Assembly (NCBI GenBank): GCA_041737385.1
Contig: JBGSRU010000009.1
Location: 7,015-71,014 of the forward strand
From: Candidatus Saccharimonadales bacterium
GTDB lineage: Bacteria > Patescibacteriota > Saccharimonadia > Saccharimonadales > SZUA-47
Reading direction: 5' to 3'
DNA length: 64,000 nucleotides
Each line of letters starts with the position of its first letter. The first letter of the stretch is position 1. The position numbers and the translations under genes are program-made. Shown here in pieces: positions 822 to 47,142 of this stretch. The notes below the pieces were generated by a model. It was given only the letters and a program-made list of their open reading frames with translations, did not search any database and was not told where the DNA came from.

Positions 822-1099
822 TTCTCGTTGGAATGAGCTGGGTGAGACAATCCTTGAAATTGTTGCAAGCAGACTTTCTGAATCAAGCTAGCTTGATGTA
901 ATGAAATCTCGAGGTCGAGGAACATGACTGCAGAATGTGGGCGAGCCCCACTGGACTTTTTAAAATTACAGTATTCATGAGAAATTTTTCGAGTTTGAAG
1001 AAACAATAAGTTTGGAAGCGTCGTTATAATGATCGTAATAAGAACGATAACTCTTTTAAAATGAGCAAACAACTCTCCTAGTTGGTATACTTAGATGTA

Positions 1100-4377: not shown

Positions 4378-4606
4378 AAAATACTAGACGACTTATATGT
4401 AGAACGCTACAGAGAGTGCATAAATGATGTAAACTGTAAGTAATGATTGTAAGCAACCACAGTAGAATATCCTTCTTGCTACAGCAAACAGTTACTGCAC
4501 TAATTGACTGTTTTGTTCCGCACCGTATCTACGGATACGCTTTATCACAAGAACAGCCAACTAGTACTAGTAGACTGTATGCTTCGCCTGAAGAAAGAAA
4601 TTTACG

Positions 4607-6239: not shown

Positions 6240-6905
6240 ATGCATAGTCGATCAAAAATTATGGAGCAAGTAGATCCGGATGAGGTAAAGCTTGCGGAGG
6301 TGAGTAAGCACCCTATTGGCATCATACTGCTATATGTACAAGCAAGTGTCGGCATGACGCTAGCTGTAGGGCTATCATACTTTTTGTTACCGCTTGTCGT
6401 CACAGATACTGATACGGCGTTCTTCTACGGCAACATCTTTATGGCAATTGCAGTAACGATATCATTTGTCATCGCACTTATTGCGACACATATTTATAGA
6501 GAAAACAGATTAGTGCTTACTGATAGAAATATCACGCAAGTATTGCAGTACGGATTATTTAACCGTAAAGTCTCACAACTAAACGTCAATAATGTAGAAG
6601 ACGTTACAGCGCAACAGCAAGGGGTGCTTGCGACAATGTTTAATTTTGGAACGCTCAAAGTTGAAACAGCAGGAGAGCAAGTTAACTTTAACTTTAACTA
6701 TTGTCCGAACCCAGGGTTCTACGCAAAGATTATACTCGACGCTCGTGAGAAGATGCTTGGTCAGATGGCGCCTGATCATGTTGCTGCCCCACAAATAACT
6801 TTAAACCAGAATAACGGAACGGTAATTACTGCAAAGACAATGAATGATGCGGTGAAAGATCTTGGAGCTGAGACGATAAAGCGTGCAACCAGCTCAAAGG
6901 AATAA
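6240..6905 (+). CDS. Membrane protein with bacterial PH domain (bPH_2/YdbS-YdbT-like)
   Basis: Two TM helices are followed by LVLTDRNITQV...GTLKVETAG, the bPH_2 pattern. Confidence 0.55.
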   Translation: MHSRSKIMEQVDPDEVKLAEVSKHPIGIILLYVQASVGMTLAVGLSYFLLPLVVTDTDTAFFYGNIFMAIAVTISFVIALIATHIYRENRLVLTDRNITQVLQYGLFNRKVSQLNVNNVEDVTAQQQGVLATMFNFGTLKVETAGEQVNFNFNYCPNPGFYAKIILDAREKMLGQMAPDHVAAPQITLNQNNGTVITAKTMNDAVKDLGAETIKRATSSKE

Positions 6906-23006: not shown

Positions 23007-23049
23007 CCAACTAAAAAGACCACCTATAAAAAGTGGTCATTTTAGTTGG
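23007..23049 (+). terminator. 17-bp hairpin downstream of rny; part of repeat R1
   Basis: CCAACTAAAAAGACCAC..GTGGTCATTTTAGTTGG with one mismatch. It sits 49 nt after the rny stop. Confidence 0.4.
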
Positions 23050-23182
23050 TCGAGACCCACGCATTTTACTTGAATTGTTCAAATACATCTGTGAGAATCC
23101 TGAAAGTTCTAATAGGTTACTAGCTCGACTAAAACGAGAGCCTGTAAAAAGTACTGTCAAGATTGAGAACCTTGTATATTAG
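23033..23182 (+). CDS. 49-codon ORF inside R1 (possible small ribbon-helix-helix-like protein or conserved gene 3' end)
   Basis: GTG start. Compared with the R2 copy, nearly all differences are synonymous, including TTA/CTA and TTG/CTG Leu changes and six consecutive synonymous codons before different stop codons. Confidence 0.4.
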   Translation: MVILVGRDPRILLELFKYICENPESSNRLLARLKREPVKSTVKIENLVY

Positions 23183-23224: not shown

Positions 23225-23998
23225 GTGTCTACTTTGAGAATGTATGAAGCCGTTCGTGAAGAAGGTGCTGGTTTATGGGTTGGTGCAAACCAATATGGTC
23301 AGGAATTACCTAATGAAACAGAAGCTAATTTTATAGTACAAAAAACAGCCAAAGGTCTATGGCGAGTTGCTGTAAAGGGCTATAACGGAGGCAAGTTCTT
23401 TCCTACCTTAGTCAATACAAACGGTGAAGTTGCCGCACAAATAGGTGACCAGCATTACCCTGCAATGGACTCTCACCAAAGACTTATATCAGTTGATGAC
23501 GAAACTATGCAACTGTACGAAGAATCTTTAAGAGATACAGATGACAAAGATAGAGGATTGCTACTTAATGTTCTTGAAGGCGAAAAGCAAGGGCTATGGA
23601 GCTTGAGTGGTCCTGCCGAATATAACATTTATGAGGAGTTCGCTCAACTACTATATGGTGACGCAAGCCAAGTAGGACTTAGCTGGGGTGAATGGAGAGA
23701 ATGGGATGATAACAATCCTGACCAGTCTGGATACCACGTAAAAAAACCAGTTGCTGCCCAAGTAGTAGTAGATGGTCCTGAATTTCACGTTAGACCATAC
23801 GACCATAATGTTAGTGGTGTGACTGCGTCAGCGATTAAAGACAGGATTAAATACTTTCCTACAGCTACGAATCTAGTTAGAGACTTATCTGATGCTGATA
23901 CTATTGCTTTACGTTATATGAATGATGACTTTGCTTACGGCTCGCCAGCAGTAGAAACACAGAAAACTAATGTACTTGAAACAATTTACGGGAAGTAA
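23225..23998 (+). CDS. Hypothetical protein (257 aa, acidic, Trp/Tyr-rich)
   Basis: Long ORF with GTG start preceded by TTGGAG. I recognised no family. Confidence 0.5.
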   Translation: MSTLRMYEAVREEGAGLWVGANQYGQELPNETEANFIVQKTAKGLWRVAVKGYNGGKFFPTLVNTNGEVAAQIGDQHYPAMDSHQRLISVDDETMQLYEESLRDTDDKDRGLLLNVLEGEKQGLWSLSGPAEYNIYEEFAQLLYGDASQVGLSWGEWREWDDNNPDQSGYHVKKPVAAQVVVDGPEFHVRPYDHNVSGVTASAIKDRIKYFPTATNLVRDLSDADTIALRYMNDDFAYGSPAVETQKTNVLETIYGK

Positions 23999-24058: not shown

Positions 24059-24119
24059 GTCCTAGAGGACGTTCCTCTATAGGTGTAAAATCGTGTAACT
24101 TTGTATTTGAGAGGACTTG

Positions 24120-24204
24120 GTCACTTTCAGCGACCCCGAGATTTCATTGAATCAAATAAGTTTGATGAAGAAAGTCTCCTTCCGAAAGTCCACTGGACTT
24201 TCTC
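24120..24204 (-). repeat. Three-hairpin module, copy A (inserted in a tRNA-Pro-derived T arm)
   Basis: The minus strand reads GAGAAAGTCCAGTGGACTTTCGGAAGGAGAC...CGGGGTCGCTGAAAGTGAC. It is flanked by GAGAGGACTTG (24109-24119, identical to the tRNA-Pro T stem/loop) and ACCTCCAACC. Confidence 0.7.
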
Positions 24205-24255
24205 ACCTCCAACCTCTTCTCGGTCGGAGCTTCAAAGCCTCTCACGCCCAATGGT

Positions 24256-24431
24256 ACCAACTAAAAAGACCACTCGTGAAAGTGGTCATTTTAGTTGGTC
24301 GAGACCCACGCATTCTACTTGAACTGTTCAAATACATCTGTGAGAACCCTGAAAGTTCCGACAGGTTACTTGCTCGACTTAGACGTGAACCAAAACCTAG
24401 AATGGTCCAAATAGAAAATCTGGTGTACTAA
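24256..24431 (+). repeat. Direct repeat R2 (pairs with R1)
   Basis: Starts at the ACCA end of the degenerate tRNA-Pro 3' copy and includes the hairpin CCAACTAAAAAGACCAC..GTGGTCATTTTAGTTGG. Confidence 0.85.
24282..24431 (+). CDS. 49-codon ORF inside R2 (paralog of 23033-23182)
   Basis: It is in frame with the 104-aa track ORF 24117-24431, but only the last 49 codons are conserved with R1. Confidence 0.4.
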   Translation: MVILVGRDPRILLELFKYICENPESSDRLLARLRREPKPRMVQIENLVY

Positions 24432-24521
24432 TCTAGCGTGTTGACTTAAAACTGTCTTGTGTAAAGACTTCCTGATCCCTTTTTAGCGCATTAACAACAA
24501 TTTGGGCACATGTTTTGACTC

Positions 24522-25925
24522 CTATACGCAACAACTTAGTTTTGATATATCATTCTTGAACGAAAGAGCGGCGTACTTTATACCCTCAGATATGGTTGGG
24601 AACATTGGGATTGTATCTGTGACGTCATCAATTGTGTTTTTATTCTTAACAATCATCATAACCTCAGCAATCAGCTCACTTGCATGGGGTGCGACAATGG
24701 TCATGCCTTCAATAACTTCTGTCTTAGGATTAGCTGAAATGTTGAACAAGCCCTCGGTTTGCCTAGTTATGCCAGCTTTAGGTACTACTTCAAGCTGAAC
24801 TGTACGACACAAACACAGATTGTATCTACTCATCTGTTCTTCTTCGGTTAAACCAACACCTGCTAGTTGTGGGCTTGTGAATACAGCGAATGGAACAGTA
24901 TCATAATCTATTGAATTATTCTCGCTTTTAAGTGCGTTCAAGGTTGCAAGCGTTCCCTCACGACCAGCGGTCGTTTCTTGTCTTAGTGGAAGGTCAACGA
25001 CGTCCCCAACTGCAAATATATTCTTATTGTTGGTACTGTACGTGTTAGAAACCTTGATTGCTCCGTTTTTTGATAACTCAACGTTTGCCTTTTCGATGTT
25101 CATTTTGTCGGTATTAGGCGTTCTGCCAGAAGCAAGCAGTATCTCATCGACTACAAGTGTCTTTGATTCTTCGCCTACAGTGTAAGTTAGGTGTTTCTTC
25201 CCGTTCTTTGCCTCGACAGATTCAAGATTAGAACTGGTGATTATTTCGATACCTTCTTCTGATAGAATACCCTGTAGCCGAAATGCAGAACCTGTATCTA
25301 CTCTAGGCAGTATTCGTTCTGCTCGTTGCAAGATTGTAACTTTGCTTCCGAAACGAGAGAACATTTGTCCCCATTCCAATCCTTGTGCACCAGCACCAAC
25401 AACAGCTAATGACTTCGGTAGTTCTTTAAGCTCAACTGCATCAATGTGAGTTATATATCCAGCTTCTTCTAGCCCCTTTACGTCTGGTATCCGTGTTCGT
25501 GAGCCTGTTGCTATGATTATTTTTGGTGCTGTAAATGTTTCATTTTCAACAGCAACAGTTTTTTCGTTTTCAAAAGTGGCGTGCCCCTCAAGATAAGTTA
25601 CATGTTCAAGCTCGCCTAAGACGTCTTTATACTTCTTAGTTCGCATCTTCTCAACCATGGCTTGCTCATCAGCAATAACTTTGGCAAAATCAGCCTCTCT
25701 GACGTTAAACTCTAAACCAGGCACACCGTGATGTGTAGCATTGTGAACAAGTTCGGCTGCGTGAATAAGTGTTTTTGACGGGACACAGCCCACATTAACG
25801 CACGTACCGCCTAAAGGTAAGCCAGCATTGACCATCAAAGTCTTTGCTTTAAGTGTGTTGGCTTTAATGGCTGCAGAAAACGCTCCTGCACCGCCACCAA
25901 TAATAATAAGGTCGTATTGTTTCAT
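24522..25925 (-). CDS. merA: Mercuric reductase MerA (core enzyme, no N-terminal HMA domain)
   Basis: FAD motif IIIGGGAGAF, redox disulfide GGTCVNVGCVPSK and a C-terminal vicinal Cys pair (..KLSCCV). Confidence 0.8.
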   Translation of the reverse strand: MKQYDLIIIGGGAGAFSAAIKANTLKAKTLMVNAGLPLGGTCVNVGCVPSKTLIHAAELVHNATHHGVPGLEFNVREADFAKVIADEQAMVEKMRTKKYKDVLGELEHVTYLEGHATFENEKTVAVENETFTAPKIIIATGSRTRIPDVKGLEEAGYITHIDAVELKELPKSLAVVGAGAQGLEWGQMFSRFGSKVTILQRAERILPRVDTGSAFRLQGILSEEGIEIITSSNLESVEAKNGKKHLTYTVGEESKTLVVDEILLASGRTPNTDKMNIEKANVELSKNGAIKVSNTYSTNNKNIFAVGDVVDLPLRQETTAGREGTLATLNALKSENNSIDYDTVPFAVFTSPQLAGVGLTEEEQMSRYNLCLCRTVQLEVVPKAGITRQTEGLFNISANPKTEVIEGMTIVAPHASELIAEVMMIVKNKNTIDDVTDTIPMFPTISEGIKYAALSFKNDISKLSCCV

Positions 25926-25926
25926 T

Positions 25927-26247
25927 TTATGCTCCTAACATCTTAGCTACGTTTTGAAACTCTTTTTTATTGAGAGAGTAGAAGTTGTGCTTACCGTCCT
26001 TACGAACAGTCACAAGTTCCACATCTTTAAGACGAGCTAAACTATGTGAAGCATTGGAAATGCTTGTACCTACTAGTTCGGCTATGACTGTTACGTTAAG
26101 CTCGGGGTGGTGTCTGAGAAGGTAGCATATTTTTAATTTGGTCTGGTCACCAATGACACCGCATTGTCTGGCACATCTGTCGATTGCAACATTATCTACA
26201 AGTTCTTTTTTGATGTTATTGAGTTGAACGTTTGAACGCATATTCAA
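25927..26247 (-). CDS. ArsR/SmtB family metal-responsive transcriptional regulator
   Basis: Winged HTH (KLKICYLL...VTVIAELVGTSISNASHSLARLKDVELV). It sits 1 nt upstream of merA. Confidence 0.8.
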   Translation of the reverse strand: MNMRSNVQLNNIKKELVDNVAIDRCARQCGVIGDQTKLKICYLLRHHPELNVTVIAELVGTSISNASHSLARLKDVELVTVRKDGKHNFYSLNKKEFQNVAKMLGA

Positions 26248-26288
26248 ATGATACCATTACTTAAGCCCTGATTCAACAAGGCTTGTGC

Positions 26289-26343
26289 TACGTCGCACAA
26301 TCAACATTCTACGACATGCTCTAACAGGGGTAGAGCCATTTAT
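26289..26343 (+). repeat. Direct repeat R3b
   Basis: Copy of R3a. It overlaps the -10 and 5' UTR of the candidate arsR-merA promoter. Confidence 0.7.
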
Positions 26344-26366
26344 TTAGCGACTCGGGGCTTTGTCAA
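26338..26366 (-). promoter_or_regulatory. Candidate promoter of arsR-merA
   Basis: On the minus strand, TTGACA, a 17-nt spacer, then ATAAAT, about 90 nt upstream of the arsR start. Confidence 0.45.
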
Positions 26367-26444
26367 GTGCTAGTGTTGTTTTCGCCCACCCCTGTTAAAA
26401 AACCTACTACACCATAATAGGAATTTGCATACGTTTCATTAGGA

Positions 26445-27392
26445 TCAGACGTATATTCCTTGCTTAACTTTTATTGGGTCTAAAGGTTCGTTAGTAAACG
26501 GGTTAGTATAGCTGGTTAAGGGTGGTTCATCGGGTAAAGGAAACTTGCCAACCAGCCGAAATGGCTGTTTTGGCGGTGTTTCGTCACCTAGTTCTTCCCA
26601 TTCGCTTATCTTGCTAATTTCAATAGGCTCAAATACTATATCTTCCGATGACGTGAACGACTTGTCGCTTAGGTCATAAAAGCCACGAGCCATTTGCCCA
26701 ACAGCAGAACCTTTTCGCTTATTAGCCTTAACTACATACCTGTAAGTAAGGTCTACTATTATCGTGTCTCCACGTAGGTCAATTATTGGAACTTGTTCAA
26801 ATCTGTACTGGTATGAGCCTTCTTTGATAATGTCTATAGTATCGTCACTCCAATGGTCTCTAAATAATTCGTATATATTTCTTGGTGGCTCTGAGCCGTC
26901 AGATATTTTCATGTCCCATACTAGTGGCGAGAATCTAAAGTCTTGTCCTGTTTGTTCAAGACCATAAGAGATTGAATCAAGGTAAAATCCTTCCGCAATC
27001 ACTGGTGCTTTAATCATAAAGTTACTTGTATCTGCATGACCTTTATCTATTAGTACCACTGTCTTAATCTTGTAATGCTTGGCAGTTCGTAGGGCAGACT
27101 TAGTAAAGCCTGCATTTGAAATCATTATTCCGCTTTTTGCATTCTCATCCTTTAGCTTATTTGCAAATTGCTCAACCTTTGGCAGGTCTACTGGCTTTGA
27201 ATGATCCTTGCACTCAATATCAATGAAATCTTTGTCGCCAACCTTTATATCTATTTGTCTTGGAGCTTGGCTAATCACGCCAGTCACTTTTTGATTTGGT
27301 TTTACAATCTGATTACTAAAAACCTTGGAACTAGTCTGCATTGCACTTTCTTCAAAGCTTTTCCATTTAGGTTTCTTGGTGTTATCAGGCAT
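26445..27392 (-). CDS. Mrr-like restriction endonuclease domain protein (PD-(D/E)xK) with uncharacterised C-terminal domain
   Basis: N-terminal WKSFE...IDIKV...IDIECKDH...GIMISNAGFTKSA matches the Mrr_cat pattern. The C-terminal ~170 aa is unassigned. Confidence 0.6.
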   Translation of the reverse strand: MPDNTKKPKWKSFEESAMQTSSKVFSNQIVKPNQKVTGVISQAPRQIDIKVGDKDFIDIECKDHSKPVDLPKVEQFANKLKDENAKSGIMISNAGFTKSALRTAKHYKIKTVVLIDKGHADTSNFMIKAPVIAEGFYLDSISYGLEQTGQDFRFSPLVWDMKISDGSEPPRNIYELFRDHWSDDTIDIIKEGSYQYRFEQVPIIDLRGDTIIVDLTYRYVVKANKRKGSAVGQMARGFYDLSDKSFTSSEDIVFEPIEISKISEWEELGDETPPKQPFRLVGKFPLPDEPPLTSYTNPFTNEPLDPIKVKQGIYV

Positions 27393-27413
27393 TTACATAT
27401 CCTCAAGGATTAT

Positions 27414-27806
27414 CTATAAACTCGCAAGCACAATCGCTTCTTTAATCTCTTTTTCAATGCTATCGCCATATTTCTCAAGTTCTTCTAAAGTAACCCAAGA
27501 AAACTCTTGGTGCTCATCACTTAATACCACGTCATTGGTATTGGTGTCGCAAAGAAAGAACAATGCAACTATATGCTTAAGTTCACCTTCTGGTTTTGCG
27601 AACCACTCGTCAACGTGAATAACCTTACCTACAACTAAATCTGTAATACCAGTTTCCTCACTAGCTTCTCGGCGTAGACCGTCTTCCAGCTTTTCACCTT
27701 TTTCAAGTCTTCCGCCGACTGCTTGCCATCTTTCACCTTCACGAACAATAAGAAACTTTCCATCTTGATTTTTAATTACTGCTTTTACGGCTACTTGTGT
27801 ATCCAT
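27414..27806 (-). CDS. NUDIX hydrolase
   Basis: Nudix box GGRLEKGEKLEDGLRREASEETGI. Confidence 0.85.
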   Translation of the reverse strand: MDTQVAVKAVIKNQDGKFLIVREGERWQAVGGRLEKGEKLEDGLRREASEETGITDLVVGKVIHVDEWFAKPEGELKHIVALFFLCDTNTNDVVLSDEHQEFSWVTLEELEKYGDSIEKEIKEAIVLASL

Positions 27807-28612
27807 TATTGTTTCTGCTCCATTGTTAAATAAGTGTTTCGAATAGCTTCAATTAGATCGTTATCTAGCTCATTACTCCTAGCCATTTCTGATAGTAGAG
27901 CTAGGTCTTTTTTGGGTACTTGGCTTGGCTTGAATGCTATATTGGCTGTCATCATCTCCGCTAAGTCTTCTTTCCATACTTGTCCAAAATTATCTAATGA
28001 TTGCTCGCTCATGAAATCGTAAACAGCAGGTATATTTGCACCATACTTACTTAGTAGCCTGTGGGCTTCTACTCCGACTGCTAGGTTTGCATATCTAGCA
28101 AGGTTAAATGTGAGCTTTGCGAGTGTAGCAGAAGGAATATCTCCCATATATCGTGTACTACCCATAGCCTCAAACACTTCTTTATTATCTTCAAATGCTT
28201 TTTTTGAACCCTCAACTAAAAACTCAATTGTTCCACTAGTTGCATGGTTCTTGCCACCAATCATAGGTGAACTTAAAAATTGTTTGCCTTTAGACTCAAA
28301 TATACTCGCAAACTCTTTAGCTATTTCAGGTGTTAATGTACTTGTCTCAATAATCGTCACGATGTTGTTGTTTTCGGCGAGTAATTCTTCAATAACTGTT
28401 CGAGAAGCATCTGGATTAGGTAAACAGAGTATGACAACTTCACTAACATTAGCAATGTCGGTAACACTATTCGCCTTTTGAATACCAAATTGTTGAAGCT
28501 TAGTTGTTTGTTCATTATCAGTATCGAAGCCTATTAAGCTAAAGTCCTTAGAAAGTATGTTTTTCGCCATACCACTTCCCATGTTTCCTAGACCTACAAA
28601 ACCAATTTTCAT
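27806..28612 (-). CDS. NAD(P)-dependent oxidoreductase (3-hydroxyisobutyrate/6-phosphogluconate dehydrogenase-like)
   Basis: MKIGFVGLGNMGSGMAKN Rossmann start. ATG 28612 is preferred over the 30-codon upstream extension in the track. Confidence 0.75.
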   Translation of the reverse strand: MKIGFVGLGNMGSGMAKNILSKDFSLIGFDTDNEQTTKLQQFGIQKANSVTDIANVSEVVILCLPNPDASRTVIEELLAENNNIVTIIETSTLTPEIAKEFASIFESKGKQFLSSPMIGGKNHATSGTIEFLVEGSKKAFEDNKEVFEAMGSTRYMGDIPSATLAKLTFNLARYANLAVGVEAHRLLSKYGANIPAVYDFMSEQSLDNFGQVWKEDLAEMMTANIAFKPSQVPKKDLALLSEMARSNELDNDLIEAIRNTYLTMEQKQ

Positions 28613-28876
28613 AACTACATAATAACAGGGCAAAATTGGAATAGCCACACAATACCTCAACATATACCTTAAAGCTTGTCCAGTGCTCTTAGGATGCTTC
28701 ACAGAGCAACTTTTAACTAAGGGTTCTTGTTCATCTTTTGCATTGTACGAATACCGAGCGACTGCTCACGATTTTTTTTCTTAGATTTTCTACCCTCAAC
28801 GCCATTTATTCACGCAACAATACTATTATTATCTGACAGTGGTTTTCTTAAAAACTCAGTAAACGTATGAGAGTTC

Positions 28877-29107
28877 TTAGGCAATTGTCCAGAAATTCAT
28901 CGTAACTTTGGTTTGGTTTTCTTTGGCGGTAGTTATTCTTTCGGCGAATACCTGATTGTTCTTCAGATAGTAATAAAAACTACTCCTCGAAATCCCTGCA
29001 AAGCGACAACTGTCGGTAATGTTGGTGTTATGGGATATTGCGTCAGCCAAGATAATGACTGTACGCATAGTTATAATTTGTGGTCTTCCTACTGATTTCT
29101 TAATCAT
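28877..29107 (-). CDS. Small helix-turn-helix protein (candidate element regulator or directionality factor)
   Basis: 76 aa. ITDSCRFAGISRSSFYYYLK is a resolvase/transposase-type HTH. Confidence 0.45.
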   Translation of the reverse strand: MIKKSVGRPQIITMRTVIILADAISHNTNITDSCRFAGISRSSFYYYLKNNQVFAERITTAKENQTKVTMNFWTIA

Positions 29108-29192
29108 TAAACTCCTTTTGTTTTGATATGTATCTATTTTAATTATCTCATTTACACTATTTTGGGTAGGTAACCTATAATATTAAATAATT

Positions 29193-30041
29193 ATGGGTAC
29201 TCCAAAACCGAAGAAAGCTAACGACTATGCAGTAGCAAAAGCACTGAACGAGGTGGTCTATAGTATATTGGTCTTTGTATATGCGGGATGGGGTACTGAT
29301 CTATATAAAGAACATGAAATTGCGGAGATTAACCGCACATACATTCTGATAACGCACGAATTAGAAAAAATATACGCACGTAACCCCGAATTACTTGCAA
29401 TAAAGCCCGATCCGATTTGGAGACTTTTTGAAGTACTGAAAAACACCACGGAGACTATAGCCGACCACTTTAGTGATTCCGACGACCATGGTGCAGAGCA
29501 TACAGTAAGGGTAGAAAAGTTATGTATCCTTGCTGGTGTAGATGAGCCAAGTTATACACCAGAGCAACAGAAATTGGTGGATAATTCTAAAGTGGCAATT
29601 AGTAATTATGCTGCGTTGGTCAAGAAGGAAGGCGAGAAATTGTTAGCAGTAAAAAAAGAATACGGCTGGGAGATGATGAATTACTATCTGACTTACAAAC
29701 CAGACGGCACAATCTTGATAAACGACGTATTGAAACTTAAGAAAGTTCATGCAGGATCCATCACGGAAAAGTTGCTAGAACAATCCATAAAGAATCCTAA
29801 TACTAAATTCAAGCCAGAACTCGGAAAGACAGCGAGAAATATCAGCACAATAGTTAGTAGTGCTGGCTTTACGCCTGTTCTAAGGGATTTGTTTTTCCCA
29901 ACTGTTAGTGGTGACACCGTCGTATTCCGTCCATTTGTATCTAAATTACAGGCAGATACAGAACGCATAGATAGAGATGAACTAGATTTGCAGCTCAGAG
30001 AAAACGGTGCTATCTGCAGAGTAGTATTTGAACCAAAGTGA
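29193..30041 (+). CDS. Hypothetical protein (282 aa) within the island
   Basis: Long ORF in which I recognised no family. Confidence 0.45.
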   Translation: MGTPKPKKANDYAVAKALNEVVYSILVFVYAGWGTDLYKEHEIAEINRTYILITHELEKIYARNPELLAIKPDPIWRLFEVLKNTTETIADHFSDSDDHGAEHTVRVEKLCILAGVDEPSYTPEQQKLVDNSKVAISNYAALVKKEGEKLLAVKKEYGWEMMNYYLTYKPDGTILINDVLKLKKVHAGSITEKLLEQSIKNPNTKFKPELGKTARNISTIVSSAGFTPVLRDLFFPTVSGDTVVFRPFVSKLQADTERIDRDELDLQLRENGAICRVVFEPK

Positions 30042-30182
30042 ACCGAAAAGAACCATATGAAACGACATCAAACTGATACAGCGACTTAAAGATATATAAG
30101 TTCTTTAATGGTGATAGGACGAATAATCCGAGTTCACCTAACTATAATCGTCTTGTTAGGAGGGCTCGAATACGGAGCCGAT

Positions 30183-30368
30183 ATGTCATTAAGTAATGAG
30201 CAAGAAAATAAGAATGTTACCAGTCAAGAAACTAACAGCATAAGCGATACAAGAATAAACCTAGCTGCCGTTGTCATTGGGCTAGAAAAAACTAGAGCCA
30301 CAATACAAGATTTAACAGATAACGAACTGTATGTATTCGATTTGCACGGGAACAAAGTATTACTATAA
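30183..30368 (+). CDS. Small hypothetical protein
   Basis: An internal ATG with a GGAG-like RBS is preferred over the 30108 start. Support is weak. Confidence 0.25.
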   Translation: MSLSNEQENKNVTSQETNSISDTRINLAAVVIGLEKTRATIQDLTDNELYVFDLHGNKVLL

Positions 30369-30420
30369 ATATTTAGCAAGAGTCTACACGAACTATTGAA
30401 TCAGTCTATAATACGACTAA

Positions 30421-32085
30421 ATGAATGATGATATAGCAACAACCAAACAATTATTACAGATGATGCAGACCTTGTATCCTAATCAGGATCCAAGAGATAT
30501 TGACCCAACAACTTTGCGATATGTCATATATGCTAGAAAATCTACTAGAAGTGAAGAACGACAAGAACGAAGTATACCTGACCAGATTGCAGACTGTTAT
30601 CTCAGAGAGGTAGACCTATACGGGTTAACCGTTATTGGTAAGCCAATCCGTGAGAAGCAAAGTGCAAAAGAACCAGATATACGACCTAAGTTTCGACAGA
30701 TGATTGATGACATAAAAGCTGGTAAGTATGACGGTATCATCGCATGGCACCCTGATAGGCTTGCAAGGAATATGAAAGAGGCAGGAGAGATAATTGACCT
30801 ACTGGACAAGGGCATTCTTAAAGACATACGCTTCGCTACAAGTAGCTTTGAAAACAGCCCAACAGGTAAGATGTTACTCGGCATATCTTTTGTTCTATCT
30901 AAACAGTATTCAGAGCACTTGAGTGAAAGCGTAACAAGAGGTAATAGACGTAAGACAGAAGGTGGTGTGTTCTTCGCTGATATGAAGCACGGTTACTACA
31001 TAGGGGACGGTAAGCTGTTTCCTGACGGCAATAACTTCATACTTATTAGACAAGCATTTGAGAAACGTCTTGAGGGTTGGGGTCAGAAAGAAATAGCTAA
31101 CTGGCTAAATACTCAAGGCTATATGATTAGAAAAAAGAACAAAAAGCCCCAAACATTCAAGTGGGACAAGGACAATATTAGTAAGCTATTTCGTGATACG
31201 ACTAATGCTGGAGTTCTTAAATACGGTCAGACATTCACTGACCTGACAGACTTTTATGATTTTGAAGCTGTTGTATCTGTTGAAGAGTTTCTTAAAATCA
31301 ACAAGGTCAAAGACTTGTCTGATCCTAAGCTAATGTCATCAATCTTGGTCAAGTCTAGAGAAGCCACGAAAGCAAATCTGTTAAGGGGTATGGTGTATTG
31401 TGGTTTTTGCGGTAAATCTTTTAGCTCTGGAATAACTGTCAAAAAAGACAAAGAAACTAGAAAGATACTCACTAGTCGTTACTTTTACCGATGTGAAAAC
31501 GAAGAATGTGAATTTAAGAATAAAAGTGTCAGAGCAAAAACTGTAATAGAGGTTGCAATCAAGTTCCTGTCTGAGCACCTGTACACGACTAAAGATAACT
31601 ATGATAGATATGTCTCTGACGCTAAAGAGTACGCTTCTACACAAGCCAAAGCTCTTGATGGCGACATTGCCAGCTTAGCTCGACAAATAGGCAATAAGAA
31701 AGCCGAGTACAGTCGCACAAAAGAGATTATCAGAGACAAGCCAGCTCTTGCCAAGCACTACAACTTAGATGAGATTGAAGCTGAGCTAAAAGCCATTACT
31801 ACTGACCACGACAAGCTTGCTAAGAGCCGTAAAGACCTCAAGCAATCGGTTTTGGAATATTCTGAATATCTCGAACTTTTTGAAAACATAGGTGTTATTT
31901 TAACAAAAACGCATGATATGGGGTTATTAGACGAGAACATCAAAAAGTTCTTCTTGAACTTTTCTGTGAAGCAATGGGGACTAGGTAAAAAACAGAGGTC
32001 AGAAGTTACCTTCAACTTAAATGAACCCTTCGCAGGGTTCATAAAATCGAACAATTTCGTTCATGGTCGGGGTGAGAGGACTTGA
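30421..32085 (+). CDS. Large serine recombinase (integrase)
   Basis: Resolvase catalytic domain (YVIYARKSTRSEERQERSIPDQ, DGIIAWHPDRLARN), recombinase domain, zinc ribbon (CGFCGK...CENEEC) and a coiled coil. The last 22 nt overlap the 3' end of tRNA-Pro. Confidence 0.9.
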   Translation: MNDDIATTKQLLQMMQTLYPNQDPRDIDPTTLRYVIYARKSTRSEERQERSIPDQIADCYLREVDLYGLTVIGKPIREKQSAKEPDIRPKFRQMIDDIKAGKYDGIIAWHPDRLARNMKEAGEIIDLLDKGILKDIRFATSSFENSPTGKMLLGISFVLSKQYSEHLSESVTRGNRRKTEGGVFFADMKHGYYIGDGKLFPDGNNFILIRQAFEKRLEGWGQKEIANWLNTQGYMIRKKNKKPQTFKWDKDNISKLFRDTTNAGVLKYGQTFTDLTDFYDFEAVVSVEEFLKINKVKDLSDPKLMSSILVKSREATKANLLRGMVYCGFCGKSFSSGITVKKDKETRKILTSRYFYRCENEECEFKNKSVRAKTVIEVAIKFLSEHLYTTKDNYDRYVSDAKEYASTQAKALDGDIASLARQIGNKKAEYSRTKEIIRDKPALAKHYNLDEIEAELKAITTDHDKLAKSRKDLKQSVLEYSEYLELFENIGVILTKTHDMGLLDENIKKFFLNFSVKQWGLGKKQRSEVTFNLNEPFAGFIKSNNFVHGRGERT

Positions 32086-32140: not shown

Positions 32141-32188
32141 ATGATGTATATGTATTATAACTTATAAAGGTTCAAATCTGAGGACTTG

Positions 32189-32275
32189 GTCACGTACCGC
32201 GACCCCGTCGCCACTTCTTTGAAAACAAGTTTACAAGAGTGAACTCCCTTGCGAAGTGCGCAATCGGCACTTCTC
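32189..32275 (-). repeat. Three-hairpin module, copy B
   Basis: The minus strand reads GAGAAGTGCCGATTGCGCACTTCGCAAGGGAG...CGGGGTCGCGGTACGTGAC, flanked by a tRNA 5' fragment and CAAGTCCTCA. Confidence 0.7.
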
Positions 32276-32302
32276 ACTCTAGCCAACTGAGCTACACTCT
32301 GG
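32276..32302 (-). pseudogene. tRNA 5' fragment (acceptor plus D arm only)
   Basis: CCAGAGTGTAGCTCAGTTGGCTAGAGT. Its 21-nt D-arm region is identical to tRNA-Pro, the acceptor strand differs, and there is no anticodon arm. Confidence 0.7.
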
Positions 32303-32435
32303 AATCAGCGTGTGATGATTCGGTTGCTGTTCCGCTCACAAAACAAGTTTGATGAACGAATCAAGCAACCGAATTAAGCCACTGATTCTTCAAATTCGAA
32401 AACCCTCTCTCAAATTTGGTTTAGCTACGAATATC
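32303..32435 (-). repeat. Conserved structured region, copy 1 (pairs with 46887-47020)
   Basis: Shared blocks are CGTGTGATGATT, GCC..GATTC and AGCTAC.AATA. The 11-bp stems covary, and the terminal hairpin at 32391-32418 pairs fully only on the minus strand (two G-T pairs). Confidence 0.6.
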
Positions 32436-32492
32436 TTCGGAATTTACTTCGGTAATTATAACGCAGTTAGAAGTCTTTTTCCAGTGGTATAA

Positions 32493-35110: not shown

Positions 35111-35170
35111 GAGTATATTGTAACAAACAAAAATACCTCCGTTGGGGGTATTTTTAAGATACATAGAAAT

Positions 35171-35359
35171 TAGTACCTCAGGAGGGAATCGATCTACCTT
35201 CGGCAGCCCCGAAACTACATCTATGAAAGCAATCTTTCAAGTGAAGGTTTCCTTACAAACTGCCACAGGCAGTTTTCACCCCGACCTTTTTGGTCGGGCG
35301 TTCGACTCGCTTCGCGAGTACCAAACTAAAAACCAGCCTAGAAAGGCTGGACTTTAGTT
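35171..35359. mobile_element. Miniature cargo-less insertion at the 3' end of tRNA-Arg(UCU)
   Basis: It begins with a 19/22 copy of the tRNA-Arg 3' end (35171-35192). It then carries module C1, an inverted degenerate copy of the tRNA 3' part ending in ACCA (35292-35323), and a hairpin. Confidence 0.5.
35193..35277 (-). repeat. Three-hairpin module, copy C1
   Basis: The minus strand reads GAAAACTGCCTGTGGCAGTTTGTAAGGAAAC...CGGGGCTGCCGAAGGTAGA, flanked by GGTCGGGGT and TCGATTCCCTCC. Confidence 0.7.
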
Positions 35360-35436: not shown

Positions 35437-35480
35437 GAGTACCAGATAAGTATTATAACAGGGGTTCGATCCAGAATCGA

Positions 35481-35566
35481 GCCACCTTTGGCGGCCCTGA
35501 AACTTCATGATTGAAAAACAAGTTTTCATCAGAAGATTTCCTTGCAAAATGCTACCAGCATTTCTC
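35481..35566 (-). repeat. Three-hairpin module, copy C2
   Basis: The minus strand reads GAGAAATGCTGGTAGCATTTTGCAAGGAAATC...CAGGGCCGCCAAAGGTGGC. Confidence 0.7.
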
Positions 35567-35620
35567 ACCCCGACCTGTGGGATAGAAGCCCATTGCTCTA
35601 ATCCGCTGAGCTACCGGGGC
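35567..35620 (-). pseudogene. Truncated second copy of tRNA-Arg(UCU), positions 1-54 only
   Basis: It is 100 percent identical to 35383-35436, and the identity continues through the 10-nt upstream flank. It ends at the T-loop where module C2 begins, with no matching 3' acceptor strand downstream. Confidence 0.75.
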
Positions 35621-35645
35621 GAGTACCAAATCGCTTAAAATCAAT

Positions 35646-35768: not shown

Positions 35769-37292
35769 CTAGAGGTCGTGGACAACTTCTATCTGTGCAC
35801 CGAGACTATTAAGACGCTCTGCAAGATCTTCGTAGCCTCTATTTATCGTATAAACATTGCGCAACATTGATTTGCCTGGAGCAGCGAGCATCCCAATGAG
35901 CAATAAGCTTGCTGGCCGCAACGCAGGCGGGCAGGCCAAGTCAGCTCGCGTGAATTTAGTGATTCCTGTAATATAGACGCGGTGCGGATCAGCTAATTCT
36001 ACGTTTGCACCAATTTTAGTCATCTCTGTGTAGTAGATTGCTCTGTTCTCATAGGTCCAATCGTGAATTAGAGTGCGACCTTTAGCCACGGCGCAAATTG
36101 GGACGAAATACGGAAGATTATCTTGATTTAGCCCTGGATAAATATTGGCATGAATCTTATCTTCGAGCGAGATAAGCGAGCCATTATGTTTATGAACGGT
36201 TATATCAACGAGATCAGTAAATCCATTTTTTGCTTTATAGCGCCCACTTTGATCATAGATGAGTCCCATTTTTTTCAGTTTGAGCATTTCTAGAGTCATA
36301 AAATCAATCGGCACACGCTTAATTGTTATTTGTGAGTTGGTTGTTACTGCTGTACTTACAAAAAACATTGCTTCAATTGGATCTTCTGCTGGCGCATAGA
36401 CGACGTTTTGTTTGATCTCTTTTGCTGATCCGGTAATCGTGAGTGTCATAGAGCCGATGCCGTCAATTTTCACCCCAAGCTTTTCCAGATATCCGCAGAC
36501 ATCCTGCACCATGTAATTCGCACTTGCCATTTGAATTATAGTTTTCCCAGGGGCTTTTGCTGCAGCCATAACGACATTTTCAGTCACAGTATCTCCTGAT
36601 TCATACAAGGTTATGTGCTCAGGTTGCATAGGCTTACAGTTGATTTGGTAGAATCTATTTTTTGCTTCAATTGATACGCCAAACTCTTCTAGCCCGTATA
36701 AATGAGGCTTTACCGTGCGCTCGCCGAGTTTACAGCCCCCGGCATATGGTATTTTGAATTCTTTTAGCTCATGCATCAGGGGACCTATCATCATCAGTAC
36801 GGAACGGGTTTTTCGAGCTGCTTTAGCATCCAGATTTTCCATTTTCAGATGAGCTGGTCGCTTTATCTCGAGGTCGTTACCTTCGAGCCAACGTACTTTA
36901 ACTCCTATACTCTCAAGCACTTCAATAATTCGGAATACTTCTTCAATGCGCGGAAATGATTTAAATGTTGTCGTACCTTTGTTTAGCAGACTAGCGCATA
37001 GCAGCCCTACAGCCGCGTTTTTACTGGTTTTAAGAGTGATTGTGCCAGCGAGCTCATGCCCGCCATCAATTGAGAGGTTTACTCCTTGATTACCAACAGA
37101 TATTAACGGCTTCTCTAGTACTTCACTGATACGGCTCAACATATCTAGGCTGAGGTTCTGGTTGCCTTTTTCAATACGATTGATAGCAGATTGTGACGTA
37201 CCGAGCTTACTGGCAAACTCGGACTGAGTAAGCCCTCGTATCTGTCGCAACTCAGATATAAGAGAACCGATGCGTTCGTTTGTTTCTTTCAT
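35769..37292 (-). CDS. murA: UDP-N-acetylglucosamine 1-carboxyvinyltransferase MurA fused to an N-terminal XRE-type HTH domain
   Basis: Residues ~10-65 form an HTH (LRQIRGLTQSEFASKLGTSQSAINRIEKGNQNLSLDML). The rest is full-length MurA, including YAGGCKLGERTVKPH with the active-site Cys. Confidence 0.85.
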   Translation of the reverse strand: MKETNERIGSLISELRQIRGLTQSEFASKLGTSQSAINRIEKGNQNLSLDMLSRISEVLEKPLISVGNQGVNLSIDGGHELAGTITLKTSKNAAVGLLCASLLNKGTTTFKSFPRIEEVFRIIEVLESIGVKVRWLEGNDLEIKRPAHLKMENLDAKAARKTRSVLMMIGPLMHELKEFKIPYAGGCKLGERTVKPHLYGLEEFGVSIEAKNRFYQINCKPMQPEHITLYESGDTVTENVVMAAAKAPGKTIIQMASANYMVQDVCGYLEKLGVKIDGIGSMTLTITGSAKEIKQNVVYAPAEDPIEAMFFVSTAVTTNSQITIKRVPIDFMTLEMLKLKKMGLIYDQSGRYKAKNGFTDLVDITVHKHNGSLISLEDKIHANIYPGLNQDNLPYFVPICAVAKGRTLIHDWTYENRAIYYTEMTKIGANVELADPHRVYITGITKFTRADLACPPALRPASLLLIGMLAAPGKSMLRNVYTINRGYEDLAERLNSLGAQIEVVHDL

Positions 37293-46023: not shown

Positions 46024-46341
46024 TTGCTTGATGGCTTTTCTATTGGTAGTGTGGCCTTTGTTGTATCTGTAGCAATATTTACAGCTGCTACAGCGATACT
46101 TGGACCTTTTATTGCAAAATTGGCGCTTAAAAATGCTAACTATCTTATGGGTGGTATTGCGCTGGTTAATACGCTCGTTGCGCTTTTACTTACTGATATT
46201 TTCTCTTCTGGTATATCAATCGAAGGCTTGTCAACATGGATACTAGCTACACTAATCGTATGGTTATTCTCAATTATAGGCAGCTTGCTATTGCCGCTGT
46301 TTTTGTTTAAAAAAACACTTAATAAAATCAAAGAAGATTAA
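46024..46341 (+). CDS. Small 3-4 TM membrane protein (DUF360/phage-holin-4-like)
   Basis: TTG start and a hydrophobic profile. The family assignment is tentative. Confidence 0.4.
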   Translation: MLDGFSIGSVAFVVSVAIFTAATAILGPFIAKLALKNANYLMGGIALVNTLVALLLTDIFSSGISIEGLSTWILATLIVWLFSIIGSLLLPLFLFKKTLNKIKED

Positions 46342-46486
46342 CTACGATTCTTGATATTGCTACAAGTTTTTAAAGTAAAATTTATCAATGAAATTAATTC
46401 GGAATTTCAGCCAGTATTGTTATAAACAATTCTAATTGCTAGGTTGACTAAAAGAGCTTCACCCTACTCGCGTGAGGCTCAAGAAT

Positions 46487-46682
46487 TGGAGGGCCAGCGT
46501 GGACTTGACTCACCTTTGGCGAGCCCCGAACTTCGTCTTTGCAAACCAGTTTGCAAGAGAAGATTCGTTTCCAAAATGCCACCGGCACTTTTCACCCCAG
46601 GCACCCTTTTGGCGTGTCCGATGTTCAAGTTCCACCAACCCTACCATATGAAAATACCCACGGCGAGGTGGGTATTTTCATA
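46487..46682. mobile_element. Miniature cargo-less insertion at the 3' end of tRNA-Lys
   Basis: It begins with a 22/24 copy of the tRNA-Lys 3' end including CCA (46487-46510). It then carries module D, an inverted degenerate tRNA-Lys T-arm copy, and a 16-bp perfect hairpin. Confidence 0.55.
46509..46593 (-). repeat. Three-hairpin module, copy D
   Basis: The minus strand reads GAAAAGTGCCGGTGGCATTTTGGAAACGAATC...CGGGGCTCGCCAAAGGTGAG, flanked by CCTGGGGT and TCAAGTCCACGCTGGCCCTCCA. Confidence 0.7.
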
Positions 46683-46683
46683 T
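46646..46683 (-). terminator. Perfect 16-bp hairpin abutting the CCA end of tRNA-Lys
   Basis: ATATGAAAATACCCAC-GGCGAG-GTGGGTATTTTCATAT. Confidence 0.65.
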
Positions 46684-46759
46684 GGAGGGCCAGCGGGGAC
46701 TTGAACCCCGGACACCCTGCTTAAGAGGCAGGTGCTCTAACCAGCTGAGCTACTGGCCC
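46683..46759 (-). tRNA. tRNA-Lys (anticodon CUU), CCA encoded
   Basis: GGGCCAG-TA-GCTC-AGCTGGTTA-GAGC-A-CCTGC-CTCTTAA-GCAGG-GTGTC-CGGGG-TTCAAGT-CCCCG-CTGGCCC-T-CCA. Confidence 0.92.
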
Positions 46760-46868
46760 TTAATTTGAATGATATAGTAATGTGCTACTTGTAACTATAG
46801 CTTGCGGTAACTTTTGGTTAGAGCACCGGTGCTTGTAGTTATCTTGTCTTGGCATAGAATACCTCGGG

Positions 46869-46886
46869 CAGCTGAGCTACTGGCCC
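46869..46886 (-). pseudogene. 18-nt duplicate of the tRNA-Lys 5' end
   Basis: GGGCCAGTAGCTCAGCTG is identical to 46742-46759. A sense-on-plus GGTTAGAGCACC piece within the palindrome AGCACCGGTGCT lies nearby. Confidence 0.65.
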
Positions 46887-47020
46887 GTCGTTATCGTGTG
46901 ATGATTGTCTAGCCACACTACCAGCAAAATAAATTTACTGGTACTGTTGACTACACAATCAGGCCGATTCCTCTCAATTTCGAGAATCCTCTCTCGAAAT
47001 TGTTAAGCTACAATAGCAAC
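46887..47020 (-). repeat. Conserved structured region, copy 2
   Basis: See 32303-32435. It has a perfect hairpin at 46975-47002 (CAATTTCGAGA-ATCCTC-TCTCGAAATTG). Confidence 0.6.
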
Positions 47021-47142
47021 AAGGTATATATTATATTCAAATCGTATTCTACCCCTGTTATAGCTAAATGTCAAATGAACAACCATCTACGAGACTTGTT
47101 TTCTTAACGCAAGCTTTACGAACATGATGATATAGTTTAAGT

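Follow-up and report, generated by a model that had tools for sequence, protein, structure and literature searches.

A conserved three-hairpin module set in partial tRNA copies at the tRNA-Lys locus of a Saccharimonadales bacterium, most likely part of a family of gene-less insertion units

RESULTS

The DNA behind tRNA-Lys is most likely an old copy of a gene-less insertion unit

The tRNA-Lys(CTT) gene studied here lies in a 64,000-nucleotide stretch of Candidatus Saccharimonadales bacterium (GenBank assembly GCA_041737385.1, contig JBGSRU010000009.1, positions 7,015 to 71,014), and this whole stretch is called the window below. The tRNA is followed by about 195 bp of DNA that hold no gene and end in a second copy of the tRNA 3' end. 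Our analysis indicates that these 195 bp most likely represent an old member of a family of insertion units that carry no genes and are restricted to the tRNA loci of Saccharibacteria. In all the tRNA-linked copies that we examined, a conserved 91-nt module sits within a partial copy of the same tRNA that it adjoins. From the sequence alone, it had been proposed that this locus holds a small insertion unit without genes, delimited by a directly repeated tRNA 3' end (the original prediction), and this core of the proposal is supported.

Positions 46487 to 46682 form a standard downstream unit (Table 1). The palindrome abutting the tRNA has 15 bp within 46649 to 46682, or 18 bp when the CCA/TGG is counted, and its design of A-tract, GC hairpin and U-tract recurs after the tRNA in other units. 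Next to it lies an antisense half, the plus strand of which reads as the tRNA 3' half; the inverted repeat at this locus (I3) has 48-nt arms that are 79% complementary. The displaced 3' end differs from the corresponding end of the tRNA (46683 to 46706) at 3 positions, with 21 of 22 nt identical over the first 22, CCA included, so the predicted repeat with its CCA is present while the identity is 21 of 24 rather than the 22 of 24 given before. At up to 3 mismatches, the window contains no second match to the tRNA-Lys 3' end besides this one, and 0 were expected from shuffles. The hairpin, the degenerate opposite-orientation 3' half and the palindrome against the tRNA were all found where the original prediction had placed them. 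The hairpin that closes the unit distally was not called by a strict terminator scan. In its predicted shape, the whole unit folds with the antisense half paired to the 3' copy (z = -4.8). A cloverleaf-like alternative, in which the antisense T-arm replaces the D-arm, was judged by eye from the fold and was unsupported in the tRNA-Lys copy.

On the 5' side of the tRNA, the exact repeat of its first 18 nt was confirmed. The 109 nt between this fragment and the tRNA carry no module and contain an inverted piece of the tRNA D-arm region (46815 to 46828). Beyond the fragment lies a conserved leader element of about 130 nt, upstream of which a promoter-like site (47046 to 47074) has 11 of 12 matches. 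In the comparison loci L011, L014, L123, L153 and L096 (L numbers are labels of such loci throughout), this leader adjoins intact tRNAs at a distance of 1 to 4 nt, but in the window it adjoins the 18-nt tRNA-Lys fragment and a 23-nt tRNA-Pro fragment. Because of this difference, the 5' fragments appear to mark ancestral tRNA 5' ends, and the 18-mer would accordingly be the ancestral 5' end of tRNA-Lys. The 109 nt would then be inserted DNA, probably the remnant of an upstream unit that lost its module and kept the inverted D-arm piece. The leader element itself is hairpin-rich and has no Rfam match, and it may be a structured tRNA leader or a promoter-proximal element of its own.

Relatives with and without the unit

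A tRNA-Lys(CTT) gene followed by a plain terminator and no unit is present in L011, the closest well-assembled relative, and in L062 and L073. By comparison, the tRNA-Lys of L001 has a downstream unit only, and that of L060 has an upstream unit only, composed of tRNA-Lys nt 1 to 25, the module, an anticodon-arm remnant, a TATAAT box and the intact tRNA. L001 is the orthologous locus of another species, with neighboring genes 68 to 74% identical, and it carries the same unit as the window tRNA-Lys; its unit flanks match the tRNA-Lys T-arm of its own species, and P4 of its module is deleted. Similarly, L014 has a tRNA-Arg(TCT) with the identical sequence, but both of the units found at this gene in the window are missing there. 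Unit-less relatives and size polymorphism were thus both looked for and found, and the objection that there are no empty sites and no polymorphism falls away. The flanking synteny is not conserved, so these genes are to be read as unit-less tRNAs and not as strict allelic empty sites. L001 was also considered as a strict empty site for the 127-bp 5' insertion and was rejected, since its upstream flanks are not significantly similar; the leader element was used instead.

The module is a covarying three-hairpin structure

Two samples were compared with the window. For the unselected genomic set, species-representative genomes were scanned with the adjacent EPSP-synthase fusion, which gave 80 loci whose titles are mostly Saccharibacteria or Saccharimonadales. 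The metagenome set came from a scan with a degenerate module pattern and comprises at least 120 loci, of which the first 100 listed gave 118 distinct model-aligned copies; metagenome counts here and below are among the matches listed. The unselected genomic set is the cleaner evidence, since the metagenome alignment was fitted to the covariance model and a part of P4 is fixed by the scan pattern. In the window, module copies were located by profile and covariance-model (R1) searches, and tRNAs were called by ARAGORN and the Rfam tRNA model.

Eighteen aligned copies from the window and the unselected genome loci fold into three hairpins, namely P1, a long P2/P3, and P4. The paired cells of these copies reached 93.9%, against 71% in column shuffles and about 40% with slid partners, and compensatory changes occurred in 26 of the 32 pairs. 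The 118 metagenome copies gave 95.7% paired cells and compensatory changes in 31 of the 32 pairs. The module starts with UGAGA and finishes with GUGAC, its unpaired GUGA, GCAAG and GGG are near-invariant, and a G.U in P4 is conserved in 15 of the 18 unselected copies. No family of Rfam 15 covers the module, and at the gathering threshold only tRNA models match anywhere in the window; at permissive E-values, no family fell on the module at E<=10 (window 46300 to 47000) or at E<=1 (four copies of L012), and these searches gave tRNAs and noise alone. Look-alikes of the hammerhead, the K-turn and other ribozymes were rejected by eye, as the apparent CUGAUGA falls inside a covarying helix.

The mismatches in P1 to P3 comprise 41 G.U (1.4%), 32 A.C (1.1%) and 111 others, whereas in 272 tRNAs of these loci the acceptor and T stems hold 248 G.U (7.6%) and 7 A.C (0.2%). 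G.U is thus not tolerated far above A.C in P1 to P3, as it would be in a functional RNA, with the single conserved G.U of P4 as the exception. This spectrum fits DNA-level hairpins or decay after insertion, not an RNA kept folded in place. Whether two modules share a contig, lie on different contigs or belong to different tRNA types, their sequences are about 67% identical, and clustering by tRNA type or by contig, as a sign of vertical descent or of recent bursts, gave no signal. The same identity in all comparisons indicates that most copies are old and that their lineages are not tied to one tRNA. Truncated or degenerate copies are common, such as the one without P4 in L001 and those in L019 and L050.

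The module sits at loops or junctions within partial copies of the adjacent tRNA

Comparison of the left flank with the neighboring tRNA places the insertion point most often at the boundary of T-stem and T-loop, after G52/53, and otherwise after position 25 (about 15 copies), after G37 in the anticodon loop (8 copies) or after G18 in the D-loop (5 copies; metagenome counts). In unambiguous cases the left flank ends in G, and about 1 to 3 tRNA nt seem to be missing at the site, as judged by eye in a few copies.

Downstream units follow one order: the intact tRNA, a terminator of A-tract, GC hairpin and U-tract whose symmetry reaches into the CCA/UGG, an antisense tRNA 3' half, a short loop, the sense variable loop with the 5' strand of the T-stem, the module, then T-loop, T-stem 3' strand, acceptor strand and CCA, and a second terminator. 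Among 64 such units, the 3' copy is identical to the tRNA at 21 to 22 of 22 nt in 35, and the antisense half has a mean identity of 75% to the exact antisense. A wobble bias in the antisense half was considered as a sign of RNA pairing and set aside as weak (108 G.U, 71 A.C and 255 other mismatches). In L016, a hairpin homologous to the one directly after tRNA-Pro in L011 and the window stands distal to the unit, which supports entry of the unit between the tRNA body and its old terminator.

Upstream units begin with the original leader and the tRNA 5' part up to the insertion point, continue with the module, a few T-loop and T-stem nucleotides or an anticodon-arm remnant and a short spacer, and end at the intact tRNA, leaving a displaced tRNA 5' fragment behind. 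Some of them lie 12 to 40 nt from the tRNA, so their module must be part of the tRNA precursor transcript. Good TATAAT boxes 15 to 20 nt before the mature tRNA 5' end occur in the spacers at 35437 to 35460, at 32141 to 32165 and at about 1356 to 1380 of L060, and upstream units may bring a new promoter for the tRNA that they rebuild.

Tandem arrays were found in L054, L192 and L123, and a few pairs of units are near-identical (L130 and L205). In L130, two units (4593 to 4751 and 6468 to 6626) are 99% identical, lie 1,875 bp apart and bracket genes for a phosphotransferase (APH) and a P-loop kinase; at its borders, this cargo has 10 nt of the tRNA-Lys end as a repeat (TGGCCCTCCA), and a recombinase is absent. 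Two modules within one pseudo-tRNA occur in L211 (2696 to 2923), L156 (182 to 378) and L188 (about 60 to 216), and the L211 case is a pseudo-tRNA-Leu upstream of an intact tRNA, with modules after the D-stem (about position 25) and in the T-loop. In L146 (1513 to 1636, minus strand), a complete tRNA-Ser(CGA) with its own upstream region and terminator is split by a module in the T-loop and has no intact copy within 300 nt; it is the sole convincing case of an intron-like arrangement or a dispensable tRNA.

The family is confined to Saccharibacteria and tied to tRNA genes

Beyond the six copies of the window, about 150 further modules were found in Saccharibacteria genomes and metagenomes. The genomic sources gave 21 covariance-model hits in 12 of 84; all the named sources with hits are Saccharibacteria, and those titled as other candidate phyla gave 0 hits. 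One protein neighboring the locus studied here has a counterpart of 100% identity on a 137-kb contig at NCBI, and the relatives of this protein carry the name Candidatus Saccharibacteria. The metagenomes gave 140 hits in 109 loci, with a tRNA within 300 nt of 108 of the 140 copies and in the same orientation as the module in 106 of these 108. At least 16 amino-acid tRNA types stand beside modules, and 18 of the 178 tRNAs in the unselected loci have one. Wherever checked, the flanks are cognate to the adjacent tRNA, and so the units are not dispersed from a source gene as SINEs (short interspersed elements) are. No tRNA lies within 300 nt of the other 32 metagenome copies or of two copies in the window, and some of the 32 may lie near contig ends. 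The second objection named with the original prediction, 3' ends duplicated away from tRNAs, bears on these copies, part of which were checked.

Clustering of open reading frames (ORFs) within 2.5 kb of the roughly 150 modules revealed no recombinase, transposase or reverse transcriptase that accompanies them consistently. The recurrent annotated clusters were housekeeping genes, spurious antisense ORFs and serine recombinases, and two further clusters had no Pfam match. No member of the TnpA/TnpB family was found among the genes near module copies, in a search that covered neighborhoods and not whole genomes. In 2.9 million viral contigs, the module pattern had one hit, in a GC-rich coding region without a tRNA, which is a chance match. 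The literature searched yielded no description of such units.

Other units in the window

Six module copies, four of them alignable at first, were found in the window by profile and covariance model, at 46509 to 46599, 35481 to 35572, 35193 to 35283, 32189 to 32281 and 24120 to 24210 on the minus strand and at 838 to 928 on the plus strand. The downstream unit of tRNA-Arg(TCT) shares the internal order of the tRNA-Lys unit and nearly its size, in agreement with the original prediction. In the upstream unit of the same gene, 35568 to 35631 copies 11 leader nt and tRNA nt 1 to 53 with 98% identity, and a T-loop fold-back and a TATAAT box come after the module. The original downstream unit of tRNA-Pro now lies 7.8 kb away from its tRNA. 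The sixth module, preceded by a hairpin and located downstream of a short ORF (459 to 752), has no tRNA within 30 kb; either it was left behind when a tRNA locus was lost, or it departs from the association with tRNAs. The EPSP synthase gene of the window (35769 to 37292, minus strand) is fused to an N-terminal helix-turn-helix domain, and the fusion is conserved across Saccharibacteria and other Patescibacteria (80 loci). An exact look-up of the DUF2177 protein of the window gave no record.

Table 1. Coordinates of the tRNA-Lys locus and related features (window positions unless a comparison locus is named)
Feature	Position	Strand	Evidence
Intact tRNA-Lys(CTT), CCA encoded	46683..46759	-	ARAGORN and Rfam tRNA model, 70.2 bits
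Perfect palindromic terminator-type hairpin directly after CCA	46649..46682	-	Sequence, inverted repeat I3, fold
Degenerate antisense copy of tRNA-Lys 3' half, from complement of CCA back to variable loop	46614..46648	-	Inverted repeat I3
Sense copy of tRNA-Lys variable loop and T-stem 5' strand (GGGUGCCUGGGG), adjoining module	46595..46606	-	Sequence comparison
Conserved 91-nt module ("module D") with helices P1, P2/P3, P4	46509..46599	-	Covariance model R1, 101.6 bits
Second 3' end of tRNA-Lys (displaced or duplicated), from T-loop through CCA; identity 21/24	46487..46510	-	Mismatch-tolerant match search
Distal hairpin and U-run closing the tRNA-Lys unit	46450..46480	-	Sequence, fold
109-nt segment from intact tRNA-Lys to displaced 5' fragment	46760..46868	-	Sequence, model scan
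Exact copy of tRNA-Lys nt 1-18	46869..46886	-	Equals 46742-46759; 0.01 matches expected
Conserved tRNA 5' leader element, about 130 nt	46888..47022	-	nhmmer E=1e-31
tRNA-Arg(TCT) downstream unit, same architecture; module 35193-35283	35161..35359	-	Alignment, covariance model
tRNA-Arg(TCT) upstream unit; module 35481-35572	35437..35631	-	Rfam, direct repeat D4, covariance model
tRNA-Pro upstream unit; 23-nt exact tRNA 5' fragment (32275-32297) fused to module (32189-32281)	32158..32297	-	Direct repeat D8, covariance model
Original tRNA-Pro downstream unit: hairpin, antisense half, module 24120-24210	24094..24303	-	Collinear with L011
Island with large serine recombinase gene (30421-32085), between tRNA-Pro CCA and its hairpin	24304..32063		Comparison with L011
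Sixth module copy, no tRNA nearby	838..928	+	Covariance model, 69.5 bits
Leader element copies, window	46888-47022, 32301-32439	-	
Leader element copies, L011	1125-1262, 11695-11817		
Leader element copy, L014	11703-11828		
Leader element copy, L123	196-315		
Leader element copy, L153	3810-3942		
Leader element copy, L096	2079-2169		

The serine-recombinase island at tRNA-Pro is a separate element

In L011, the CCA of tRNA-Pro is directly followed by the hairpin, the antisense half, the module and the T-loop copy, to which positions 24303 to 24094 correspond in the window. There, a 7.8-kb island lies between the CCA and the hairpin, with the 6-nt CGACCA at both junctions, and its large serine recombinase ORF extends 22 nt into tRNA-Pro on the opposite strand. 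Large serine recombinases cross over at 2 bp and leave neither 22-nt repeats nor target duplications of 18 to 64 nt. The duplications of the units measure 18 to 64 nt, in contrast to the short CGACCA core of the island, and only the island has the junctions of a serine recombinase. Because the L011 unit follows tRNA-Pro without any island, the units are not derived from it. The island is a separate element that does not belong to the module family, and the units are older and independent. The original prediction had read the units as miniature derivatives of this recombinase element and had assigned the module to its integrase-distal end; neither claim survives the comparison with L011, in which the unit stands directly after tRNA-Pro, and the island was inserted beside a unit that already existed.

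Serine recombinase genes within 2.5 kb of a module occur in the window and in a handful of the at least 120 metagenome loci, about seven loci in all (L139, L156, L184, L189, L196 and L210, besides the window), and recombinase-bearing loci without modules also exist (L024 and L068). The recombinase-proximal junction motif was found again after the CCA of tRNA-Gly(GCC) in L139 and of tRNA-Pro(GGG) in L156. In L189 and L196, the recombinase gene is convergent and lies just past the 3' copy of a unit. It seems that the island family lands at CCA ends of the tRNA type, possibly including those of units in the two latter loci; the element site of the island would be GGGTCTCGACCA/TGAACGAAATTG. A direct repeat of 152 nt (23030 to 23181 and 24279 to 24430, 82% identical), each copy of which ends with GGGTCTCGACCA and a near-identical hairpin, brackets the downstream unit of tRNA-Pro and one gene (23225 to 23998), and it could mark where an earlier island of this type ended.

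DISCUSSION

A tRNA-targeted duplicative insertion is the favored explanation

We favor the view that the units are a non-autonomous insertion element which is specific for tRNA loci and duplicates part of its target, and we regard this as about evenly balanced between right and wrong. The units would arise by duplicative insertion at a tRNA. For the downstream type, recombination within the core of about 22 nt from T-loop to CCA would rebuild an intact tRNA with its own terminator and push the old 3' end (46487 to 46510 at tRNA-Lys) and the old terminator distally, while the fragment at 46869 to 46886 would be what remains of an event of the upstream type, the module of which was later lost. 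Insertion after G in four loops or junctions, the pairable inverted arm and the DNA-like mismatches together suggest that the process acts on a folded single-stranded molecule that resembles a tRNA. The substrate is probably such a folded single-stranded nucleic acid, in which the inverted arm would pair with the core and mimic the duplex of T-arm and acceptor, the module hairpins would serve as recognition features, and an enzyme not encoded in the unit would act in trans. The tRNA-Lys copy is probably no longer mobile.

Several observations weigh against a mobile element of this kind. No recombinase, transposase or reverse transcriptase lies consistently near modules, and no circular or autonomous form was found, the viral contigs giving only the chance hit. 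The copies are old at about 67% identity, and recent mobility is shown only by the few near-identical pairs of L130 and L205. A simple site-specific element that uses one fixed attachment site would not account for the fact that each unit bears flanks from its own tRNA. The conserved unpaired GUGA, GCAAG and GGG and the G.U of P4 resemble the core of a functional RNA, and the upstream units at 12 to 40 nt from the tRNA have the module within the precursor transcript. Finally, an origin in one step predicts equal divergence of the inverted half and the direct 3' copy, and the two divergences differ.

An RNA route to the same arrangement is rather improbable in our estimate. The module would then be a structured RNA of small size whose ends are defined. 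Ligation, or template switching of a reverse transcriptase, would join it to pieces of tRNA that had been cleaved after a G of the D-, anticodon or T-loop, and the chimera would be copied into DNA with a snap-back, giving the inverted half, and recombined beside the cognate tRNA gene. The cut sites would coincide with the boundaries of tRNA-derived fragments, including the 22-nt piece from T-loop to CCA. In a bolder variant, the module with its exact 22-nt tRNA tail may act as a kind of guide RNA by which tRNA CCA ends, the landing places of the serine-recombinase islands, are marked.

Alternative explanations

One alternative is a resident functional RNA, made in one transcript with the tRNA as its 5' leader or 3' trailer and spread between tRNA loci by duplication and gene conversion. 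Such an RNA would be a four-way junction closed by the T-stem, with a tRNA-like acceptor strand and CCA at the end of the downstream units, and would act in cis or in trans in tRNA processing, stability or tRNA mimicry. Strong covariation, the invariant junction nucleotides and P4 G.U, the strict co-orientation with the tRNA and the position of upstream units inside the tRNA transcription unit all speak for it, as do the good fold of the whole unit (z = -4.8), the kept T-stem pairing and the 3' copy that stays near-identical to the tRNA while the adjoining tRNA-derived parts drift. Furthermore, the upstream copy at the window tRNA-Arg and that of L042, seemingly at the same site, differ by compensatory changes. 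We nevertheless consider a functional RNA possible but unlikely: G.U hardly exceeds A.C in P1 to P3 (1.4% against 1.1%), unlike the tRNA stems of the same genomes (7.6% against 0.2%), a canonical terminator stands between the tRNA and the downstream units, the distribution is patchy among close relatives (18 of 178 tRNAs), and degenerate copies as in L001, L019 and L050 are common. Co-orientation, moreover, follows automatically for any element that integrates at an asymmetric core. A conventional tyrosine-integrase element (a prophage or an integrative conjugative or mobilizable element) that inserted between T-loop and 3' end and then lost its genes, leaving the module as its attachment arms, would account for other features. 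The T-loop is a known sublocation of integrase crossover in tRNA genes, and the direct repeat of the tRNA 3' end begins there; the restored tRNA with a new terminator, the tandem accretion, the polymorphism among relatives and the gene-carrying variant in L130 also agree with it. Attachment arms that retain three covarying hairpins are not known to us, though, and an inverted target copy is foreign to conventional attachment sites. In addition, four different positions within the tRNA copy and at least 16 tRNA types share one module, always with cognate flanks, no integrase family recurs near the roughly 150 copies, and the 2.9 million viral contigs hold no real module match. An integrase scar is therefore quite improbable.

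That the units are miniatures of the tRNA-Pro serine-recombinase element, comparable to the cis-mobilizable elements (CIMEs) of integrative elements and with the module at the integrase-distal end, is very unlikely. The window module at 24120 to 24210 does stand at the island's far end, about seven loci have a recombinase gene no more than 2.5 kb from a module, and in L189 and L196 this gene is convergent and lies just past the 3' copy of a unit. However, L011 contradicts this origin, since the window island runs from the tRNA-Pro CCA to the CGACCA just before the hairpin and was thus inserted beside a pre-existing unit; serine recombinases are established to make no target duplications of the length seen here, most module loci have no recombinase, and two recombinase loci have no module. 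Remnants of tRNA introns, or of split-tRNA pieces removed at the RNA level, are an exceedingly doubtful explanation. The interrupted tRNA-Ser(CGA) of L146 and the insertion points in loops would suit introns, in which Patescibacteria are rich (PMC13011429). Against this, excision in silico followed by ARAGORN restored a tRNA in 2 of 156 copies, one of them seemingly spurious, almost all copies have the intact tRNA in question next to them, and about 1 to 3 tRNA nt seem by eye to be missing at the junctions. The 91 nt are also far below the size of group I or group II introns, and no Rfam intron family matches. The introns described in the Patescibacteria study are group I introns in the anticodon loop, and units of the present kind are not covered there (PMC13011429).

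Implications

If the units are mobile, they represent a new way for DNA to colonize tRNA genes, among the smallest bacterial genomes known, by an element that recognizes the loops of a tRNA instead of one fixed sequence, duplicates part of its target both directly and inverted, and restores the gene that it enters. If they are functional RNAs, the candidate phyla radiation has an RNA class, new and abundant, that is fused to the ends of tRNAs. In either case, the units account for the fragments of pseudo-tRNAs and the unusual sequences beside tRNA genes by which annotation of Saccharibacteria genomes is confused. The tRNA-like CCA at the end of a unit may offer gene-carrying islands an additional place to land (L130, possibly L189 and L196), and the large serine recombinase family, which appears to integrate exactly after the tRNA CCA, is of practical interest as a source of tools for site-specific integration. 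The RNA route, if true, would be a bacterial counterpart of the tRNA-centered formation of SINEs and retro-pseudogenes.

Comparison with known systems

CIMEs of streptococcal integrative conjugative elements and the partial-tRNA scars of tycheposons in Prochlorococcus (bioRxiv 10.1101/2020.12.28.424599) are likewise insertions in tRNA genes with direct repeats of the tRNA 3' end at both ends. They share with the units a tRNA restored by incoming DNA, tandem accretion, gene-less derivatives, and presence or absence among relatives. By the usual marks of a CIME, the units have the direct repeats of an attachment core and related sites without a unit, whereas no integrase-bearing element with the same ends, no cognate integrase and no autonomous parent were found. 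They further differ in the constant 91-nt covarying three-hairpin module, in the inverted target copy, in the four positions within the tRNA copy and at least 16 tRNA types with cognate flanks, and in the upstream units, which duplicate the tRNA 5' part.

Folded single-strand sites are used by other systems, such as integron attC, the CTX phage attachment site acted on by XerCD, and the hairpin ends of IS200/IS605-type elements. The units resemble them in that structure prevails over sequence, a hairpin mismatch is conserved, and strand and orientation are specific; the inverted repeat may mimic a duplex target, and the mismatch spectrum is nearer to DNA than to RNA. As regards miniature derivatives of IS200/IS605, hairpins lie near both module ends (P1 and P4), and the left flank is constant only in its G. 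In contrast to these systems, the units have no integron integrase, Xer-type context or TnpA/TnpB nearby, no R'/R'' core sites and no fixed target motif of 4 to 5 nt, and they make long target duplications.

MITEs (miniature inverted-repeat transposable elements) and repeats of the REP (repetitive extragenic palindromic) type are also short, gene-less, multicopy and hairpin-rich, with old diverged copies. The module, however, has no terminal inverted repeats (UGAGA...GUGAC), the inverted arms of a unit are local tRNA copies, the duplications of 18 to 64 nt have no fixed length, and the units are confined to tRNA loci, within tRNA copies and co-oriented with the tRNA. tRNA-derived SINEs of eukaryotes and the chimeras of the Mauriceville retroplasmid, which takes up tRNA 3' ends, join tRNA pieces to a conserved core as well, with fold-back copies and seemingly imprecise junctions, and the fragment boundaries in D-, anticodon and T-loops are those of tRNA-derived fragments. 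The unit copies stand beside their cognate tRNA gene and are not dispersed, they have no tail or poly(A), and they show no link to a reverse transcriptase.

Islands of large serine recombinases at tRNA 3' ends match the window at 24304 to 32063 only, with a recombinase gene abutting the tRNA, a CGACCA core and cargo genes, and their sole link to the units is the CCA landing site of the tRNA type, possibly the CCA of a unit (L189 and L196). Taken together, the family differs from CIMEs, MITEs, introns, SINEs and every Rfam family, and we rate it as lying outside the known kinds, defined here by the architecture of its sequence.

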